From the NCBI GenBank assembly GCA_964576435.1, contig CAZNUP010000001.1, positions 226,345 through 290,344 of the forward strand: a DNA stretch of 64,000 bases. The letters run 5' to 3'. The notes beneath the pieces were generated by a model. The model made no database searches. It was given only the letters and a program-made list of their open reading frames with translations, and was not told where the DNA came from. Made by a program: the position numbers and the translations under genes. Every line of letters begins with the position of its first letter. Position 1 is the stretch's first letter. Below are positions 2,082 to 62,508 of the stretch, one piece after another. This stretch comes from an uncultured Gammaproteobacteria bacterium (GTDB lineage Bacteria; Patescibacteriota; Microgenomatia; JAMCZE01).

Positions 2082-2709
2082 CTAATTTAAAAAATTCCTC
2101 TATATCAAGTGAAGCATGTCCAACAACGAACCCGGAAACAATATCTGCATACGAGCTAACATTTTCTGAATTAACACTGCCTCCATATAATATCTTGACC
2201 CCAACCGGCAATTTTTCTTTCCATTCGGAGACTGTTTTACTAACTAGTTCTGGGTCTACCGCATTTGATTTACCCTCCTTAGATATTGCTTCAAATGGTT
2301 CAAACATTACAAGGTATTTTTCGCCCGGTGTGTTTTTGGCAAGTTCGGGAATTTCGTCAAAATTTTGTGCACAGATAATTGGGGTAATATTATTGGCAAG
2401 TAATTTATCCATCTTCTTACCTACAATTTCTGTAGTTTCTCCAAAATACTTTCGTCTTTCGGAATGACCTATTAGAGTGTATTTGACATCAAGTTCTTTA
2501 AGAAGCCCCGCAGGAATTTCTCCCGTGTAAGCGCCCTCTGGAAAACTAGAGACATCCTGACTAGCTAGTGTAAGTGAACTTGAAGCCAGCAAAAATAACG
2601 CTGTATAAGGAGCCGCAACCACAATTTCAATATTTGGACCCACATCCGGGGTGGTTAGCCACGGAGTCACAGAAACATTATTTGCTTTCCAGTTGGCAAC
2701 AATAATCAT
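2053..2709 (-). CDS. tpiA: Triosephosphate isomerase
   Basis: ANWKAN, IGHSERR, AQNFDE and YGGSVNSEN motifs; 218 aa. Confidence 0.85.
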   Translation of the reverse strand: MIIVANWKANNVSVTPWLTTPDVGPNIEIVVAAPYTALFLLASSSLTLASQDVSSFPEGAYTGEIPAGLLKELDVKYTLIGHSERRKYFGETTEIVGKKMDKLLANNITPIICAQNFDEIPELAKNTPGEKYLVMFEPFEAISKEGKSNAVDPELVSKTVSEWKEKLPVGVKILYGGSVNSENVSSYADIVSGFVVGHASLDIEEFFKLVDHASLQSN

Positions 2710-3395: not shown

Positions 3396-5156
3396 ATGGA
3401 TGATATCTTAAAAGGACTAAACGATCGCCAACAGGCTGCAGTTACTTCAACAGCTGGTCCGGTTTTGATTTTAGCTGGAGCGGGAAGTGGAAAAACTCGT
3501 GTTTTAACTCATAGGGTAGCCTATTTAGCTTCAAAAGGAGTTTCTCCTGAAACTATACTGCTTGTGACTTTCACAAATAAAGCGGCAGTCGAGATGAAAG
3601 ACCGGGTGCAAAAACTATTAGGTTCAACCTCCCAGCCAGTTTCTGGAACCTTCCACAGCCTTTGCGCCCGAATCCTGAGGAAAAGTGGTAAGGAACTTAA
3701 GATTTCTCCAAATTTTGTGATCTATGACGATTCAGACTCTTTAGATCTAATTAAGGATGTTATGACTAGAATGAATCTTTCTCAAAAAGATTTCAACCCA
3801 AGAGCCGTTCTTGGAACAATTAGTCAAGCAAAAAACCAATTAATTTCCTCTTTAGAGTATCCACAATACGCTAGGGGTTTATTCCAAAAGACAGTATCAG
3901 ACATTTATATCTCCTACCAAAAACAACTAAGAGAGAACGAAGCACTAGATTTTGATGATCTTATTATGGACACGGTTCGCCTTTTTAGAACACCGGTTGT
4001 AGAGGAGTATCAAGATCGTTGGAAATATATTTTAGTCGACGAATACCAAGATACTAATTTTGCACAGTTTGAACTGACAAAATTGCTTGCCAAAAAATAT
4101 AAAAATATTTGTGTAGTTGGTGATTTTTCTCAATCAATCTATTCTTGGAGAGGTGCGGATTTTAGAAACCTTCTTAATTTCAAAATTGAGTTTCCTCAAG
4201 TTAAAACATTCAACCTTGAACAAAACTATAGATCAAGTCAAAAAATACTCGATGCTGCTTTCAATGTAATTTCCAAAAACAAGTCGCACCCAATCTTAAA
4301 ATTGTGGACAGAAAACAATGCCGGCGAGAGTTTGGTTCTATTTGAAGCAAGGAATGAACAAGATGAAGCAAAATATATAATTTCAGAATTATCAGATGAT
4401 TACTCAAGGTTTGCAGTTCTTTATAGAACCAATGCCCAATCCCGTGCCATTGAAGAAGCCTTTCTCCACGCTGGTATCCCTTACACACTTGTTGGTGGTA
4501 CCAGATTCTATGACCGAAAAGAAATTAAGGACGTTTTGTCGTATCTAAGATTAATTCACAATCCCAAAGATACCGTTTCCTATAAAAGATTAGAAAAACT
4601 AGGGAAAGGCAGACTTCAGAAGTTTAACGATCATACTTTTTCAGAAGCTCCAACTCTTGAGTTACTAGACAAAGTTCTAGAAATAACTAACTATTTAGAT
4701 CTCTTTGATTTAGAGAACGAAGAAGACTTGGGTCGTCTAGAAAATATTAAAGAATTGAGATCAGTTGCTCAAGAATTTCCAGTTCTTGGGGAGTTTTTAG
4801 AAAATGTCTCCCTTGTTGAAAAAGAAAGCAATAAGAATAAAAGTTCAGGTGGAGCAGTGACTTTAATGACTTTGCATGCTGCTAAAGGTTTAGAATTCCC
4901 AGTTGTGTTCATTGTTGGAATGGAAGAGGGAATCTTTCCTCATTCAAGAAGTCTGATGGATTCGTCTGAGATGGAAGAGGAACGCCGTCTTTGTTATGTA
5001 GGAATAACAAGGGCCCGGGAAAAGCTATATTTAACGTATGCTAGAAAGCGTCTCTTCTTTGGAACTAGAAGTTCAAACCTTCAAAGTAGATTTTTAGCAG
5101 ATATTCCAGAAGAATTATTAGAGACTAAATTTAGCTCCAGTTTAAGTGACTTTTAG
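3396..5156 (+). CDS. pcrA: UvrD/PcrA-family ATP-dependent DNA helicase (compact, 586 aa)
   Basis: Walker A AGAGSGKTRVLTHRVAYL, the DEYQDTN motif, and the C-terminal motif VI region LHAAKGLEFPVVFIVG ... YVGITRAREKLYLTY. Confidence 0.85.
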   Translation: MDDILKGLNDRQQAAVTSTAGPVLILAGAGSGKTRVLTHRVAYLASKGVSPETILLVTFTNKAAVEMKDRVQKLLGSTSQPVSGTFHSLCARILRKSGKELKISPNFVIYDDSDSLDLIKDVMTRMNLSQKDFNPRAVLGTISQAKNQLISSLEYPQYARGLFQKTVSDIYISYQKQLRENEALDFDDLIMDTVRLFRTPVVEEYQDRWKYILVDEYQDTNFAQFELTKLLAKKYKNICVVGDFSQSIYSWRGADFRNLLNFKIEFPQVKTFNLEQNYRSSQKILDAAFNVISKNKSHPILKLWTENNAGESLVLFEARNEQDEAKYIISELSDDYSRFAVLYRTNAQSRAIEEAFLHAGIPYTLVGGTRFYDRKEIKDVLSYLRLIHNPKDTVSYKRLEKLGKGRLQKFNDHTFSEAPTLELLDKVLEITNYLDLFDLENEEDLGRLENIKELRSVAQEFPVLGEFLENVSLVEKESNKNKSSGGAVTLMTLHAAKGLEFPVVFIVGMEEGIFPHSRSLMDSSEMEEERRLCYVGITRAREKLYLTYARKRLFFGTRSSNLQSRFLADIPEELLETKFSSSLSDF

Positions 5157-8830: not shown

Positions 8831-10252
8831 TTAGCTTATTCGTGGGAAAAGGGGAGTTGAAGCTTTAACCTTTCCACTAAATTGTCTTAAAATCTTTTCT
8901 GACGTTTCGGGCAAAAACGGTTGCAAATTATAAGCAATCAAATTTATCTCCCGAACAGCCCCTTTGAGAAAATTACTTAGATCCCTTTCCTCTAATTTCC
9001 AAGGTTCCTTTTCGCTTATAAGTAAGTCCAGTTGCTTGATTCTTTTCCATATATTTTGGATTGCGAAATCAATCCGGTATGTTTTTAGGTTTTCCTCTAT
9101 ATCCTCAAACACATCCACATTTGGACTGCTTTCAAAGCTGGATTTCTCTGCTAGTTTTGCCACTCTCGCAACAAGGTTTCCAAGCCCATTAGCAAGGTCA
9201 GCATTATATGCTTCCTTGAACTTTTCATCAGAGTAATCGCCATCATCAAAAAGTGGAGTTTTAGCAAGGAAATAATATCTAACCGGATCTGTTCCAAACT
9301 TTTCAATAAGTTCAAAAGGGTCTATGGTGTTACCAAGGGTCTTTGATATTTTTTGGCCATTAACTGTGTAGTATCCATGAATTAAGACGGCTTTAGGTAG
9401 TGACAATCCCGCAGATAATAAAAATGCTGGCCAATAAACTGCATGAAATCTGGTGATTCCTTTACCAATTACATGCACATCCGCTGGCCACCATTTTTTA
9501 TAGCTTTTCTCGTCCCATCCAAACCCTACCCCAGTTTGGTAAATATTAAGTGCGTCAAACCAAACATAAATTCTTTGAGAATCGTCTCCAGGAACTGGAA
9601 TGCCCCAATTTTTTGCTCGTTCGTTTGATCTGGAAATTGATAAATCAGGAACATCTCCAGAAAGCCACCCAAGTACTTCATTCTTTCTAAAGTCTGGATA
9701 GATTTTTAGCTCGTTGGAATTTATAATTTCCAAAAGCTTTTCTTTATATTTAGACAGTTTGAAAAAGTAGTTTTCCTCTTCAACTTCATCCAACTTTTTT
9801 CCCGGATGTTCAAAACACTCTCCTTTTTCGTTTAACTCTTCTGGCTCATAAAATTGTTCGCACCCAACACAATAAAGTCCCTTATATTTTTTCTTATAAA
9901 TATCTCCATTTTTGGCACAAAGTTCCCATAGCTTTTGGCTGGCAGCATAATGGTGCCTTTCATCACTACCTCTTTGCCAAATATCGATGGACACATTTAA
10001 TTTCTTAACAAGATCTTCAAACTCACCATTATGTAAATCAATAAACTCTCGAATTGGTTGTCTGGCTTTTTCAGCGGCCTGTACATTTTTGAGCGCATTT
10101 TCATCTGCGCCGGACAAATATCTAACTTCTTTTCCATTAAGTCTATTAAACCTTGCAATTGCATCTGCTTGCACAGACTCGAGTGCCCACCCAATGTGAG
10201 GTTTTGCATTTACATAAGGTATTGCAGCTGTGATATAAAATTTATTATTCAT
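8831..10252 (-). CDS. metG: Methionyl-tRNA synthetase (short form)
   Basis: AIPYVNAKPHIGWALE (HIGH region) and KISKTLGN (KMSKS). AGGAG SD 8 nt upstream. Confidence 0.9.
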   Translation of the reverse strand: MNNKFYITAAIPYVNAKPHIGWALESVQADAIARFNRLNGKEVRYLSGADENALKNVQAAEKARQPIREFIDLHNGEFEDLVKKLNVSIDIWQRGSDERHHYAASQKLWELCAKNGDIYKKKYKGLYCVGCEQFYEPEELNEKGECFEHPGKKLDEVEEENYFFKLSKYKEKLLEIINSNELKIYPDFRKNEVLGWLSGDVPDLSISRSNERAKNWGIPVPGDDSQRIYVWFDALNIYQTGVGFGWDEKSYKKWWPADVHVIGKGITRFHAVYWPAFLLSAGLSLPKAVLIHGYYTVNGQKISKTLGNTIDPFELIEKFGTDPVRYYFLAKTPLFDDGDYSDEKFKEAYNADLANGLGNLVARVAKLAEKSSFESSPNVDVFEDIEENLKTYRIDFAIQNIWKRIKQLDLLISEKEPWKLEERDLSNFLKGAVREINLIAYNLQPFLPETSEKILRQFSGKVKASTPLFPRIS

Positions 10253-10379
10253 AATTTCTCCTATTTTAGCATTAAAAAATCCCGCCGTTTGCGGGATTAA
10301 GAAATGGAAATTCCTTCCCGCATGGGACTATGGTCTTTCCGTCATCATAAAGACTTTATCTTTCATTAGGTTTATTATA
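10253..10379 (-). promoter_or_regulatory. metG 5' leader with mutually exclusive antiterminator/terminator (attenuator). TATAAT at the 5' end; terminator hairpin 10279-10297 plus U6.
   Basis: On the minus-strand RNA, GCGGGA occurs twice (plus 10316-10321 and 10280-10285), flanking a single UCCCGC (plus 10291-10296). The downstream pairing gives AUCCCGC-AAACG-GCGGGAU followed by UUUUUU; the upstream pairing excludes it. AGGAG SD and AUG follow 25 nt later. Confidence 0.5.
10274..10297 (-). terminator. Intrinsic-terminator hairpin (7-bp GC stem, 5-nt loop) plus U6, within the metG leader / downstream of the 10380..10811 gene
   Basis: Plus strand: aaaaaa-atcccgc-cgttt-gcgggat. Confidence 0.55.
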
Positions 10380-10811
10380 TCACCCCTTCCTTCTTCTACC
10401 AACTCTAAATGGCCATCCCTTGGGAAAAAGAATGTCTCTTCTAAGTTCGGCTCTTGGTTCAGTGGGGCCCCCATCCTTGATATCTTCCTTTGGTTTTCTG
10501 AAGTAAAAAATCAGTAGAACAAGGAAAGCAACCAAAAGAACAACATTAATAATAGTTAAGAGGTCGACAGCCTTAAGAAACATAACAAAACTAACTCCAA
10601 AAGCTACTATTAATGCCAACTTTGAACTCACAAAAAAAGATAACAAGGTTAAAGTAGCTAGCCACAATAATATGGCTGCAACAAGAATACTTGTTAGTGT
10701 GGGTGGAGTATACATAACTAAACCAAAAAGACCCATCATGCAAGCAAGAAAAACTGGAATCTTTATCCAGAAAATATATTTTTGCAATCGCCTATAGATT
10801 ATGGTAAACAT
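10380..10811 (-). CDS. Small polytopic membrane protein, unknown function (real start possibly the internal Met at ~10739)
   Basis: Four hydrophobic helices and a basic C-terminal tail. Confidence 0.4.
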   Translation of the reverse strand: MFTIIYRRLQKYIFWIKIPVFLACMMGLFGLVMYTPPTLTSILVAAILLWLATLTLLSFFVSSKLALIVAFGVSFVMFLKAVDLLTIINVVLLVAFLVLLIFYFRKPKEDIKDGGPTEPRAELRRDILFPKGWPFRVGRRRKG

Positions 10812-51859: not shown

Positions 51860-51933
51860 TGGTCGGGGAGCCGAGAATCGGACTCGGACTGCCAGACCCC
51901 CAGCCTGGCGCGCTACCACTACGCCACTCCCCG
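51860..51933 (-). tRNA. tRNA-Pro (anticodon GGG), CCA encoded
   Basis: Hand-folded cloverleaf: acceptor CGGGGAG/CTCCCCG (C1-G72), discriminator A73, D-arm GCGT-AGTGGTA-GCGC, anticodon arm CCAGG-CTGGGGG-TCTGG with U33-GGG-G37, T-arm CCGAG-TCCGATT-CTCGG, 3' ACCA. Confidence 0.8.
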
Positions 51934-59838: not shown

Positions 59839-60270
59839 TTAGCTAATTAAGTTAACTATATTTACAACAGTTATTGTTGTAAGAATCGAAAGACAAGCGG
59901 CCGTAGCAAGTAAAAGATAACTAAACACTTTGTCTTCCTCTTTTATAAAAAGTGTAATTACAAAGTTAATTATTCCAAATAAGAATGTTGCAATAAGAGG
60001 CAGGAAAATATAATTTTTATTAGCTAGTTGTCCCTCACCCCAAATATGGCTATAGAATAGAGGGATTTGTGAAGGTAGATTACTAATATTGATTCCAACA
60101 TATATTAAACCGATAGCTAGTGTTAAGGCCCAAACTAGGCATAAGGCGACAACATACTTGTCACTAAATATTTTCTTAATCATTGTCACCTGCGGGTTTT
60201 GAAAACTTGCCGCAGGAGACATGTCACTGATGCCTTTAAACCTTGATGGAAAGGTTTTAAATTTTTGCAT
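59839..60270 (-). CDS. Small membrane protein, unknown function
   Basis: Three hydrophobic helices. Confidence 0.3.
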   Translation of the reverse strand: MQKFKTFPSRFKGISDMSPAASFQNPQVTMIKKIFSDKYVVALCLVWALTLAIGLIYVGINISNLPSQIPLFYSHIWGEGQLANKNYIFLPLIATFLFGIINFVITLFIKEEDKVFSYLLLATAACLSILTTITVVNIVNLIS

Positions 60271-62038
60271 AGACTCTTCGGATTCCAGATGACACTGCTT
60301 CTTCTTTTATGATTTTAATTTGTCCAATCTCTTTAGTATTTTGAACATGTGGTCCGCCACATATTTCCTTTGACACATCACCAAATGAATATACAGTGAC
60401 TTTTTCAGGATATTTCTCTTTAAAAAATGCCATCGCCCCTTCTTTAATTGCCTCTTCATAAGTCATTGTCTCAACTTTTCTTTCTAGTCCTTCACTAATC
60501 CATTTATTGATTAAATCTTCCACCTGTTTAATTTCTTCTGGAGTCAGTTTATTTGGATAAGAAAAATCAAATCGCAATCTTTCTCCTGTTAAATTAGATC
60601 CTTCCTGTCGGACCCCATTTCCTAAAACTTTTCGAAGTGCAGCTTGCAAAAGGTGTGTGGCAGTATGATATTTCACAACTTCATCTGAGTGGTCAGCGAG
60701 TCCTCCTTTAAACATTCCCTGGCTAGCAGTTCGAGATTTTTCTTTATGTTTAGAATAAGCTTCATCATATTCTTCCTTTGTCGCAACCTTAATGTTCTTG
60801 GCTTTACCCTCCTCCTCAGTCAACTCATAAGGGAACCCAAATGATTCATAAAGATAGAACACTTCTTCGGCAGACAACTCTCCACTTGCAGATAATTTTT
60901 CAAATTCTTTAAGTCCTTTAGAAAGTGTATTCCTAAATTTGGTTTCCTCTTTGGAAATAACCTCCTTAATATTTATTTTGTTTTCCAAGAGTTCTGGATA
61001 AACTTCAGCATATGTTTCTGCTACTGGGTCAACAACTTTCTCAATGAAATTTTCTTCAACACCTAAATTTTTACTATACCTAATAGCTCTTCTAATTAGT
61101 CTACGAAGCACATAACCTCTGTCTGTGTTACTAGGAAGTACTCCTGCTGAAATAAGGAATGTTGCGGAACGAATATGATCAGCGACAATCCGGAAGTCTT
61201 TAGATTCACCACCATATTGTTGTCCAGATATCTTTTCAATTGTTTTAATTATTTCAGAAAATACATCAGTCTTAAAAACATCCATGTCATTATTAAGCGC
61301 AGCCAGTGTTCTTTCTATGCCCCCTCCAAAATCTACGTTTTTTTGTTTCAGCTCTTCAAATCCATCAGAAGTTTTTTTATAAGTTATAAAAACACAATTT
61401 CCAATTTCAATGAATCTTCCACAATCACAATTTGGATGGCACTTTTCTCCAAATTTTGGATCATGTGGTACATGAGTGAATTCATAAAACACTTCGGAAC
61501 TTGGTCCGCCAATTTCTCCAACAGGCATTTTTTCAGGTGGGCCACTTCTGCTCCACCAATTTGATTTTCCACTGTAATAAAAAATCCTTTCTTCTGGAAA
61601 TCCTAGTTTTTTCCAAATATCCGCAGAGTATGTGTCTTTAGGGACATAGTCATTCCCCTCAAAACAGGTTGCATAAAGATTTTCTAATGAAAATCCTAAT
61701 TCTTTAGTCAAAAATTCAAAGTACCAAGGGATTTGTTCATCTTTAAAATAATCACCAAGTGACCAATTTCCCATCATCTCAAAAAAGGAGTCATGCCTAT
61801 TATCTCCAACCTCGTCAATATCCTGCCCTCTGAAGCACTTTTGAATATCCACAATTCTATTACCAAGTGGGTGTTTCTCTCCAAGTAGATATGGGATTAG
61901 AGGTTGCATTCCTGATCCCGTAAAGAGGGTAGTAGGATCATTTTCTGGGACCAATGAGCTAGAAGGCACAATTACCGAATTTCTCGGGGTTTGGGTCCAA
62001 AAGTCAAAATATTTCTTCCTAAGATCTAAGTGTTTCAT
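60257..62038 (-). CDS. alaS: Alanyl-tRNA synthetase, short form (catalytic, tRNA-binding and editing domains; no C-Ala domain)
   Basis: IVPSSSLVPENDPTTLFTGSGMQP... class II catalytic core; editing-domain HxxxH (HTATHLL) and CGGPH. 593 aa. Confidence 0.85.
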   Translation of the reverse strand: MKHLDLRKKYFDFWTQTPRNSVIVPSSSLVPENDPTTLFTGSGMQPLIPYLLGEKHPLGNRIVDIQKCFRGQDIDEVGDNRHDSFFEMMGNWSLGDYFKDEQIPWYFEFLTKELGFSLENLYATCFEGNDYVPKDTYSADIWKKLGFPEERIFYYSGKSNWWSRSGPPEKMPVGEIGGPSSEVFYEFTHVPHDPKFGEKCHPNCDCGRFIEIGNCVFITYKKTSDGFEELKQKNVDFGGGIERTLAALNNDMDVFKTDVFSEIIKTIEKISGQQYGGESKDFRIVADHIRSATFLISAGVLPSNTDRGYVLRRLIRRAIRYSKNLGVEENFIEKVVDPVAETYAEVYPELLENKINIKEVISKEETKFRNTLSKGLKEFEKLSASGELSAEEVFYLYESFGFPYELTEEEGKAKNIKVATKEEYDEAYSKHKEKSRTASQGMFKGGLADHSDEVVKYHTATHLLQAALRKVLGNGVRQEGSNLTGERLRFDFSYPNKLTPEEIKQVEDLINKWISEGLERKVETMTYEEAIKEGAMAFFKEKYPEKVTVYSFGDVSKEICGGPHVQNTKEIGQIKIIKEEAVSSGIRRVYAKI

Positions 62039-62232
62039 AAAAAAACCTCGTTCCAGTATTAAATTAACTTAATACAAGGACGAGGAATTCTCGTGGTACC
62101 ACCTTGCTTGCTTCTTATTTTCTGCTTTACGGGCAGTTCCGGCAAACTCTTCGCTTGCAGCTCTTGGGTTGGCATCCCAATCAAACGCTTTTATACAACG
62201 TCTTTATTATATCAAATCCGACGGCCTCAATC
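62039..62232 (-). ncRNA. T-box riboswitch leader of alaS
   Basis: Minus-strand RNA: ...GCAAGG-UGGUACC-ACGAG-AAUUC-CUCGU-CCUUG... Helix A1 is CAAGG/CCUUG, the 7-nt bulge is UGGUACC, and helix A2 is ACGAG/CUCGU. GGUGGUACCACG matches the T-box consensus GGUGGNACCGCG. A competing terminator is CCUCGU...(GUAUUAA/UUAAUAC inner helix)...ACGAGG then U7 abutting the AUG. Confidence 0.65.
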
Positions 62233-62508
62233 TTACTTTGCTGCTTTTTGGATTTGTTTACCCAGTGATTCTGTTGCTTTGCCAGCTTCTTTGACATTAT
62301 CCTTTGCTAATTTTTGTGCGCTAGAACCGATTTGGTTTAGTTTTGCACCGGTTTTGTCAAAAAGTTCTGGGTACTCATCGTAAATTCTTCTTCTAATTTT
62401 TCTGCCTTGATCTGTTCCAAACAAGAAAGCTATCCCTCCCGCAATTGCAGCACCAAAGATTGCACCAGCCATAAAATCCGAACTTCTATTATCAGACATT
62501 ATTTTCAC
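62233..62508 (-). CDS. YtxH-like small protein (N-terminal TM, C-terminal coiled coil)
   Basis: FMAGAIFGAAIAGGIAFLF helix followed by a K/A-rich helical region. Confidence 0.4.
   Translation of the reverse strand: MKIMSDNRSSDFMAGAIFGAAIAGGIAFLFGTDQGRKIRRRIYDEYPELFDKTGAKLNQIGSSAQKLAKDNVKEAGKATESLGKQIQKAAK

Follow-up and report, generated by a model that had tools for sequence, protein, structure and literature searches.

In the 64,000-nucleotide stretch of DNA analysed here (the window), alaS lies on the minus strand at 62038..60257 and encodes a short-form alanyl-tRNA synthetase (AlaRS) of 593 aa. The product matches Pfam tRNA-synt_2c (E 5e-119) and tRNA_SAD, and its N-terminus, beginning at the AUG at 62038, aligns with homologues from residue 1. 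Upstream of the gene is an intergenic gap of 194 nt (62039..62232), in agreement with the leader length of about 194 nt given in the initial annotation, and the YtxH-like gene on its far side ends at 62233. Two contigs assembled from separate sequencing runs, L081 and L082, carry the leader without a single difference (100% identity), which argues that it is not an assembly artefact. Attenuation by a leader peptide was considered and rejected, as the leader's 41-aa ORF begins with TTG, contains only one Ala and lacks a ribosome-binding site. The AlaRS itself (593 aa, 60257-62038) stops at the SAD domain, without the C-terminal part found in typical bacterial AlaRS; its homologues, in the best 120 listed, are of comparable length, mostly 556-650 aa.

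All named AlaRS matches at 55-59% identity belong to the Microgenomates group, and the gene order around alaS (FtsK, HTH_25 protein, small proteins, alaS, glycosyltransferase 4) is common to the window and its relatives. A tentative assignment of the genome to CPR/Microgenomates, anticipated when it was first described as CPR-like, is supported by this AlaRS similarity and shared gene order. Several MAGs deposited as ‘uncultured Gammaproteobacteria’ (L004-L006, L009, L010, L036, L052, L064, L065) encode short AlaRS that are 44-53% identical to that of the window and interleave in rank with Patescibacteria matches. The taxonomic labels of several co-assembly MAGs (‘uncultured Gammaproteobacteria’, ‘Saccharibacteria’) look unreliable.

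The initial annotation placed a T-box antiterminator in the alaS leader. Against the Rfam T-box model RF00230 we found that the leader scores 54.4 bits, with a match running end to end from 62194 to 62073 and an E-value of 2.6e-11 on a 401-nt region, or 4.1e-9 when all 4227 families are run against the whole window. The region is therefore recognised by the covariance model (E 4e-9 window-wide), but at a score below the Rfam gathering cut-off of 93 bits. When the whole window was searched at the gathering threshold, only a tRNA was reported and no T-box; with E-value reporting, the leader is the only T-box in the 64 kb. The shortfall in score follows from the deletion of distal Stem I, distal Stem II and Stem III. 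In the Rfam alignment 5 nt stand for 74 Stem I model positions and 0 nt for 17 Stem III positions, and distal Stem II is also missing. The elements that are matched comprise the 5' AAAAGCG, the GA/K-turn strands, an F-box-like CCGUAA, the purine string and the T-box sequence. Since the gathering threshold misses the window leader, L084, L167, L173, L047 and L081/L082, standard annotation probably under-counts reduced T-boxes. A promoter and terminator scan flagged only the A2 hairpin as ‘terminator-like’, missed the bulged terminator described below and left the putative -10 promoter uncalled.

For the 9-mer GGTGGTACC, 0.09 occurrences per window are expected and two were observed. The second, chance copy (4494-4502) lies within the CDS of a UvrD-type helicase (3396-5156), which also holds a sub-threshold Rfam match (4949-5047; 44.7 versus 65.2 bits) to the C. 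difficile ‘sRNA included into helicase gene’. Both the sRNA match and the 9-mer copy most likely reflect coding-sequence conservation or chance.

All elements of the leader lie on the minus strand. A putative extended -10 promoter, TGATATAAT (62206..62214), can be read some 12 nt before the T-box begins, and TGATACAAT is found immediately upstream of the T-boxes of L084 and L047. Stem I (62160..62188) is ultrashort, being made up of a GC/GC base helix, a K-turn, a 5-bp UUGGG/CCCAA helix and a 7-nt terminal loop, AUGCCAA. At its base, GC-GUUUGA...GA-GC aligns at the sequence level to the K-turn columns of the model, with G-A opposite G-A. The long Stem I with its AG bulge and distal-loop elbow platform is absent, and the helix ends in the 7-nt loop. 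The GCCA that had been noticed in a small hairpin loop lies here, at 62173..62170. Its GCC (62171..62173) belongs to the terminal loop and is separated from the helix by A-A; on comparison with nine other alaS T-boxes the predicted specifier is this GCC, an Ala codon. The nearby GCUG, also pointed out earlier, is not a specifier but the point where the base helix of Stem I meets Stem II. An Ala codon is present at the 3' end of the specifier loop in 10/10 alaS leaders with a T-box; together with the next bases it reads GCC-AA in the window and L167, GCC-A in L084, L173, L139, L022 and L080, GCC-C in L024, GCU-AC in L047 and GCA-G in L062. A third-position C is common in specifiers (PMC7778990), and GCC obeys this preference.

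Nearest-neighbour MFE folding prefers another register of Stem I, in which UUGG/CCAA is capped by a GAUG loop and the CC of the GCC specifier is paired. The UUGGG/CCCAA register is favoured by comparison with L084 (CCAAAG/CUUUGG) and L047 (CCAGA/UCUGG) and by the K-turn alignment, and across six leaders (the window, L084, L167, L173, L047 and L062) all five Stem I helix pairs change on both sides. A Stem I that presents an Ala specifier in its loop can thus be folded, with comparative support. The top of Stem I (62160-62188) has the geometry of an anticodon stem-loop, with a 5-bp stem, a 7-nt loop (AU-GCC-AA), U at ‘33’ and a purine at ‘37’. From this geometry, recognition of tRNA-Ala could resemble an anticodon-anticodon loop-loop complex. 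The geometry is not kept in L084 (6-nt loop) or L047 (12-nt loop).

Downstream of Stem I, the Rfam alignment places a truncated Stem II hairpin, GCAAGC-GAAGA-GUUUGC (62142..62158). In the window, L173 and L062, Stem II is a short helix capped by GCGA(A/U)GAG(U/C), a loop motif that aligns to both S-turn strands with the distal helix deleted, and L047 has a shorter form. In the Rfam alignment it is the conserved GCGAAGAGU loop that falls on the S-turn strands, and three Stem II pairs change on both sides. Stem II is followed by Stem IIA (CGG/CCG; 62122..62141, Rfam alignment), which carries the F-box-like CCGUAA and a possible IIB pseudoknot, CUGC/GCAG; the IIB strands can pair in the window, L084 and L047 but not in L173 or L062. 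Of the Stem III motif, 5'-RRRxG-Stem III-AA-3', the flanks AGAAG and AA are present in the window as a purine string, AAGAAG-C-AA (62108..62116), and both the Rfam alignment and folding indicate that the hairpin between them is absent. The 22-nt linker at this site folds to 0.0 kcal/mol, i.e. with no predicted structure. A hairpin is inserted at the Stem III site in L084, L047, L167 and L173, leaving the window alone without one.

Counted from where the Rfam match begins to where helix A1 ends, the window T-box measures about 121 nt, the smallest found here. The Rfam match itself is 122 nt; in the four further reduced leaders it spans 166-215 nt, and in L062 and the Chloroflexi-type loci, which make up the rest of the alaS leaders, 190-294 nt. 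The specifier lies in a terminal loop in the window, in L084 and in L047, where that loop is 12 nt, and in an internal specifier loop under a 5-6-bp hairpin cap in L167 and L173. All five of these leaders lack the elbow-binding platform, and a full Stem I is found in L062 and the Chloroflexi-type leaders. The earlier suggestion of a reduced T-box therefore went less far than the leader does, as the distal Stem I platform and the Stem III hairpin are gone and Stem II is truncated.

The antiterminator, AAGGUGGUACCACGAG...CUCGUCCUU (62107..62074), reads GCAAGG-UGGUACC-ACGAG-AAUUC-CUCGU-CCUUG as originally claimed, and A1, the 7-nt UGGNACC bulge and A2 are all present. Helix A1 pairs GCAAGG (62107..62102) with CCUUGU (62079..62074), the bulge is UGGUACC (62101..62095), and A2 is ACGAG-AAUUC-CUCGU (62094..62080), pairing ACGAG with CUCGU; the A1 and A2 pairs are kept across the six leaders. 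Within the bulge, UGGU (62098..62101) would pair with a tRNA 3' ACCA bearing discriminator A73. This match to tRNA-Ala, which had been proposed from the outset, agrees with characterised alaS T-boxes (PMC4695836), though it says little alone as A73 is common. The UGGU bulge is shared by all alaS T-boxes found here.

Overlapping the antiterminator is a second hairpin (62046..62085; 5' arm CCUCGUCC..., 3' arm ...GGAACGAGG), directly followed by a U7 tract (62039..62045) that directly precedes the AUG. The competing terminator with U7 abutting the AUG had been described in the initial annotation, and we found it as described: its 5' arm is formed by the 3' strands of A2 and A1, making the two folds mutually exclusive. 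Inside its 3' arm, 7 nt before the AUG, is GAGG (62046..62049), likely the Shine-Dalgarno sequence. The predicted energies are -10.2 kcal/mol for the antiterminator alone and -16.2 kcal/mol for the competing hairpin, suggesting that the default state is ‘off’, as in known T-boxes. Folding of the whole leader gives the terminator hairpin in both the MFE and centroid structures. In all six leaders (the window, L084, L167, L173, L047 and L062) the 3' strands of A2 and A1 form the 5' arm of a hairpin that is then followed by 6-7 U, and by homology the window hairpin would be a terminator.

For comparison of the six leaders, MAFFT misaligned Stem I and was replaced by a model, R1, made from the window sequence and a hand-drawn structure, to which the homologues were aligned. 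In the resulting alignment 99.3% of cells are paired, versus 85.6% in shuffles (0/500 reach 99.3%), and 13 pairs change on both sides versus 6.6 expected (0/500 shuffles), counts that come from an alignment fitted to the model and so favour the structure. As a control, sliding the partners by 1-3 columns lowered pairing to 30-47%.

Together, the gene, the specifier, the bulge and the two exclusive folds suggest that the leader is probably a working alanine-specific T-box riboswitch, miniaturised and controlling alaS, that would bind tRNA, sense its charging and terminate transcription. By homology to T-boxes that have been characterised, the inducer is most likely uncharged tRNA-Ala(GGC), which the leader would bind and whose charge it would sense. 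The anticodon of tRNA-Ala(GGC) would pair with GCC in the 7-nt terminal loop, presented by the 5-bp Stem I on its K-turn, and the truncated purine loop of Stem II together with Stem IIA(/B) would probably steady this short codon-anticodon duplex. When the tRNA is uncharged, its 3' ACCA would pair with UGGU and stabilise the antiterminator, permitting read-through into alaS and leaving GAGG free. With a charged tRNA, or with none, the stronger hairpin and U7 would form and transcription would stop just before the AUG. A second layer of control may act on any transcript that escapes in the absence of tRNA, in which GAGG would be buried and translation blocked too. That some antitermination is needed is indicated by the position of U7, which abuts the AUG of the window's only alaS and leaves no room for a downstream promoter. 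More tentatively, a minimal T-box of about 121 nt may still sense tRNA-Ala charging and control transcription with neither elbow platform nor Stem III. If so, a terminal-loop codon, a Stem II/IIA stub and bare discriminator purines suffice, and T-box control operates in CPR/Microgenomates bacteria.

We compared the alaS loci of 80 genome and 80 metagenome relatives, among the matches listed, and of the 11 closest AlaRS relatives. T-boxes in these loci were detected with the 9-mer, a broader pattern, Rfam and the R1 model (about 1 Mb searched), all of which agree. The genome and metagenome relatives among the matches listed are at most 62% identical in AlaRS, and nearly all are without a T-box. 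Carriers of an alaS T-box are the window, L084 (AlaRS 77% identical), L167 (70%), L173 (68%), L047 and L062, and further the Chloroflexi-labelled L022, L024 and L080, together with L139, which by its AlaRS falls nearest to the Anaerolineaceae locus L024. Within the closest clade the T-box is kept in 4/12 leaders, and the other eight (L083, L166, L168-L172, L174) are without one, as judged by Rfam at E <= 1 for seven leaders and by eye and the R1 model only for L174. The intergenic gap is about 20-50 nt in most T-box-less relatives. In L083, a 176-aa ORF (2452-2982) occupies the site of the window's leader. On a neighbour-joining tree of AlaRS, carriers and non-carriers are interspersed, including within a 100%-supported group in which the window and L084 have the T-box and L083 and L170 do not. 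This suggests that the T-box was lost repeatedly in the closest clade, and the interspersed losses point to weak or variable selection for it there. The clade would then hold a series of intermediates in which Stem I becomes short, then ultrashort, and finally the whole leader is lost.

These losses bear on the possibility that the window leader is a decaying relic, a T-box descendant that lost tRNA sensing along with Stem III and the platform and acts at most as a leaky constitutive attenuator. Absence of the T-box from 8/12 closest relatives interspersed with carriers would fit such decay, as would the progressive reduction of the retained copies (a short Stem I in L167 and L173, an ultrashort one in the window and L084) and the view that Stem III is necessary for binding of the tRNA 3' end (PMC7583486). 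However, the remaining core is intact, with the specifier, K-turn, F-box, purines flanking the Stem III site and exact T-box sequence all in place and compensatory changes in its helices. An unrelieved -16 kcal/mol terminator with U7 at the AUG of the window's only alaS should also be strongly counter-selected, and relatives without the switch have lost the whole leader, not the sensor alone. We therefore regard a relic as unlikely, chiefly on account of the need for some antitermination.

A T-box acting on translation only, like the actinobacterial ultrashort class, would use the hairpin to sequester GAGG, with U7 serving as an A/U-rich spacer and no termination taking place. The location of GAGG in the hairpin 3' arm, 7 nt from the AUG in the window and likewise within the 3' arm in L084, is compatible with this, and descriptions of an ultrashort Stem I are confined to T-boxes that act on translation (bioRxiv 10.1101/2023.02.28.530422; PMC7583486). 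Yet U7 coming immediately after a G+C-rich stem base is what marks an intrinsic terminator. In L173, L047 and L062, moreover, about 20-50 nt separate the hairpin and U-run from the AUG, so that the likely ribosome-binding site is left free and the hairpin could act only on transcription. Control of translation alone is thus also improbable, and termination relieved by uncharged tRNA-Ala stays the preferred reading, with sequestration of GAGG as its possible second layer.

The specifier of a genuine T-box might instead be other than GCC, either because it is read in the CCA (Pro) frame or because the loop pairs differently. The usual TBDB rule counts the specifier 2-4 nt back from the loop's 3' end, which in the window gives CCA, and GCC lies 3-5 nt from the loop end, i.e. 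1 nt further from the helix. The same source also considers the -1 and +1 frames (PMC7778990), the gene is alaS, and only GCN is conserved in the 10/10 leaders; the frame that gives CCA in the window gives CUA in L047, and the GCC of L084 is in the standard frame. A specifier other than GCC is accordingly very improbable. That the leader merely resembles a T-box by chance, as its score below the Rfam gathering threshold might imply, is hardly credible given the window-wide E of 4e-9 and the homologous leaders upstream of alaS in independent genomes.

The alanine T-box proposed here shares much with the class I alaS T-boxes (RF00230) of Bacillus subtilis and Clostridium acetobutylicum, which have a GCU specifier and a UGGU bulge for A73 (PMC4695836). 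Gene, Ala specifier and UGGU for A73 are the same, and so are the GA/K-turn, the region of Stem II, IIA and a possible IIB with its F-box, the T-box sequence and the opposition of an antiterminator to a terminator with a U tract. Unlike these, the window leader is without distal Stem I (the AG bulge and distal-loop platform), has its specifier, GCC rather than GCU, in a terminal and not an internal loop, lacks the distal helix of Stem II and the Stem III hairpin, and scores below gathering; its terminator also abuts the AUG and contains the ribosome-binding site. With the ultrashort, class II ileS T-boxes of Actinobacteria (e.g. Mycobacterium) it shares a short Stem I, a terminal-loop specifier and the absence of a platform, and presumably the anticodon is likewise held by way of Stem II and IIA/B. 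That ultrashort class has been described as confined to ileS and tRNA-Ile and as working by Shine-Dalgarno sequestration (bioRxiv 10.1101/2023.02.28.530422), whereas the window has alaS, GCC, a Microgenomates-like genome and a terminator-like hairpin with U7. It also differs from translational T-boxes, which often have an enlarged Stem III or A2 (PMC7583486), in having no Stem III at all. In the classic ‘minimal’ T-boxes, those of glyQS, part of the standard architecture has likewise been dropped, but these keep the long Stem I platform and Stem III and are without Stem II and IIA/B, the opposite of the window leader (PMC7583486).

The leader thus misses the gathering score, Stem I platform and Stem III hairpin of canonical T-boxes, and it also misses the ileS target of the ultrashort class, whose translational-only control it does not clearly share. 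In our estimation it is likely to be a terminator-type alanine T-box with an ultrashort Stem I and no Stem III, descended from a T-box and, on the grounds given above, still sensing tRNA. Stem III has been reported to be present in all T-boxes, and in transcriptional T-boxes the long platform of Stem I is generally required, short or ultrashort forms being those of translational ones (PMC7583486). The architecture of the leader contradicts both of these published generalisations, that the platform is required and that Stem III is universal. In the literature searched we found no description of T-boxes without Stem III and no paper on T-boxes in CPR/Patescibacteria.

T-boxes serve as the model system for RNA that recognises both which tRNA it meets and whether that tRNA is charged. 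In current structural models the Stem I platform and Stem III are both essential: the platform provides for fast tRNA capture in transcriptional switches, and Stem III helps to build the discriminator that senses aminoacylation. A natural terminator-type leader without platform and Stem III would define a smaller functional core, useful for the study of mechanism and for engineering compact tRNA sensors. As read from the sequence, the leader would also show that a CPR-like lineage regulates an aminoacyl-tRNA synthetase by means of a riboswitch.

Several further features were observed in the window and the loci compared with it. No T-box was found upstream of metG (8831..10252, minus strand), which encodes a short-form methionyl-tRNA synthetase; the region upstream of it (10253-10380) has a terminator-like hairpin (AATCCCGC...GCGGGATTTTTT) following a 143-aa ORF, which reads as hydrophobic and possibly encodes a membrane protein. 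L062, from a low-GC MAG labelled ‘uncultured Candidatus Saccharibacteria’, has an AdoCbl-II riboswitch match above Rfam gathering (1599-1685; 38.0 versus 36.5 bits) about 1.1 kb upstream of its full-length alaS T-box. L080, a Chloroflexia chromosome, has a second T-box of 91.6 bits (2144-2449, minus strand), divergent from its alaS T-box and about 80 nt away. A search for tRNA-Ala found none in the 64-kb window and none in 55 related loci. The sole tRNA in the 64-kb window is tRNA-Pro(GGG) (51860-51933, minus strand), and in the Microgenomates-type metagenome loci L106, L108, L109 and L118 a tRNA-Glu(CUC) lies on the opposite strand about 1.3 kb downstream of alaS.
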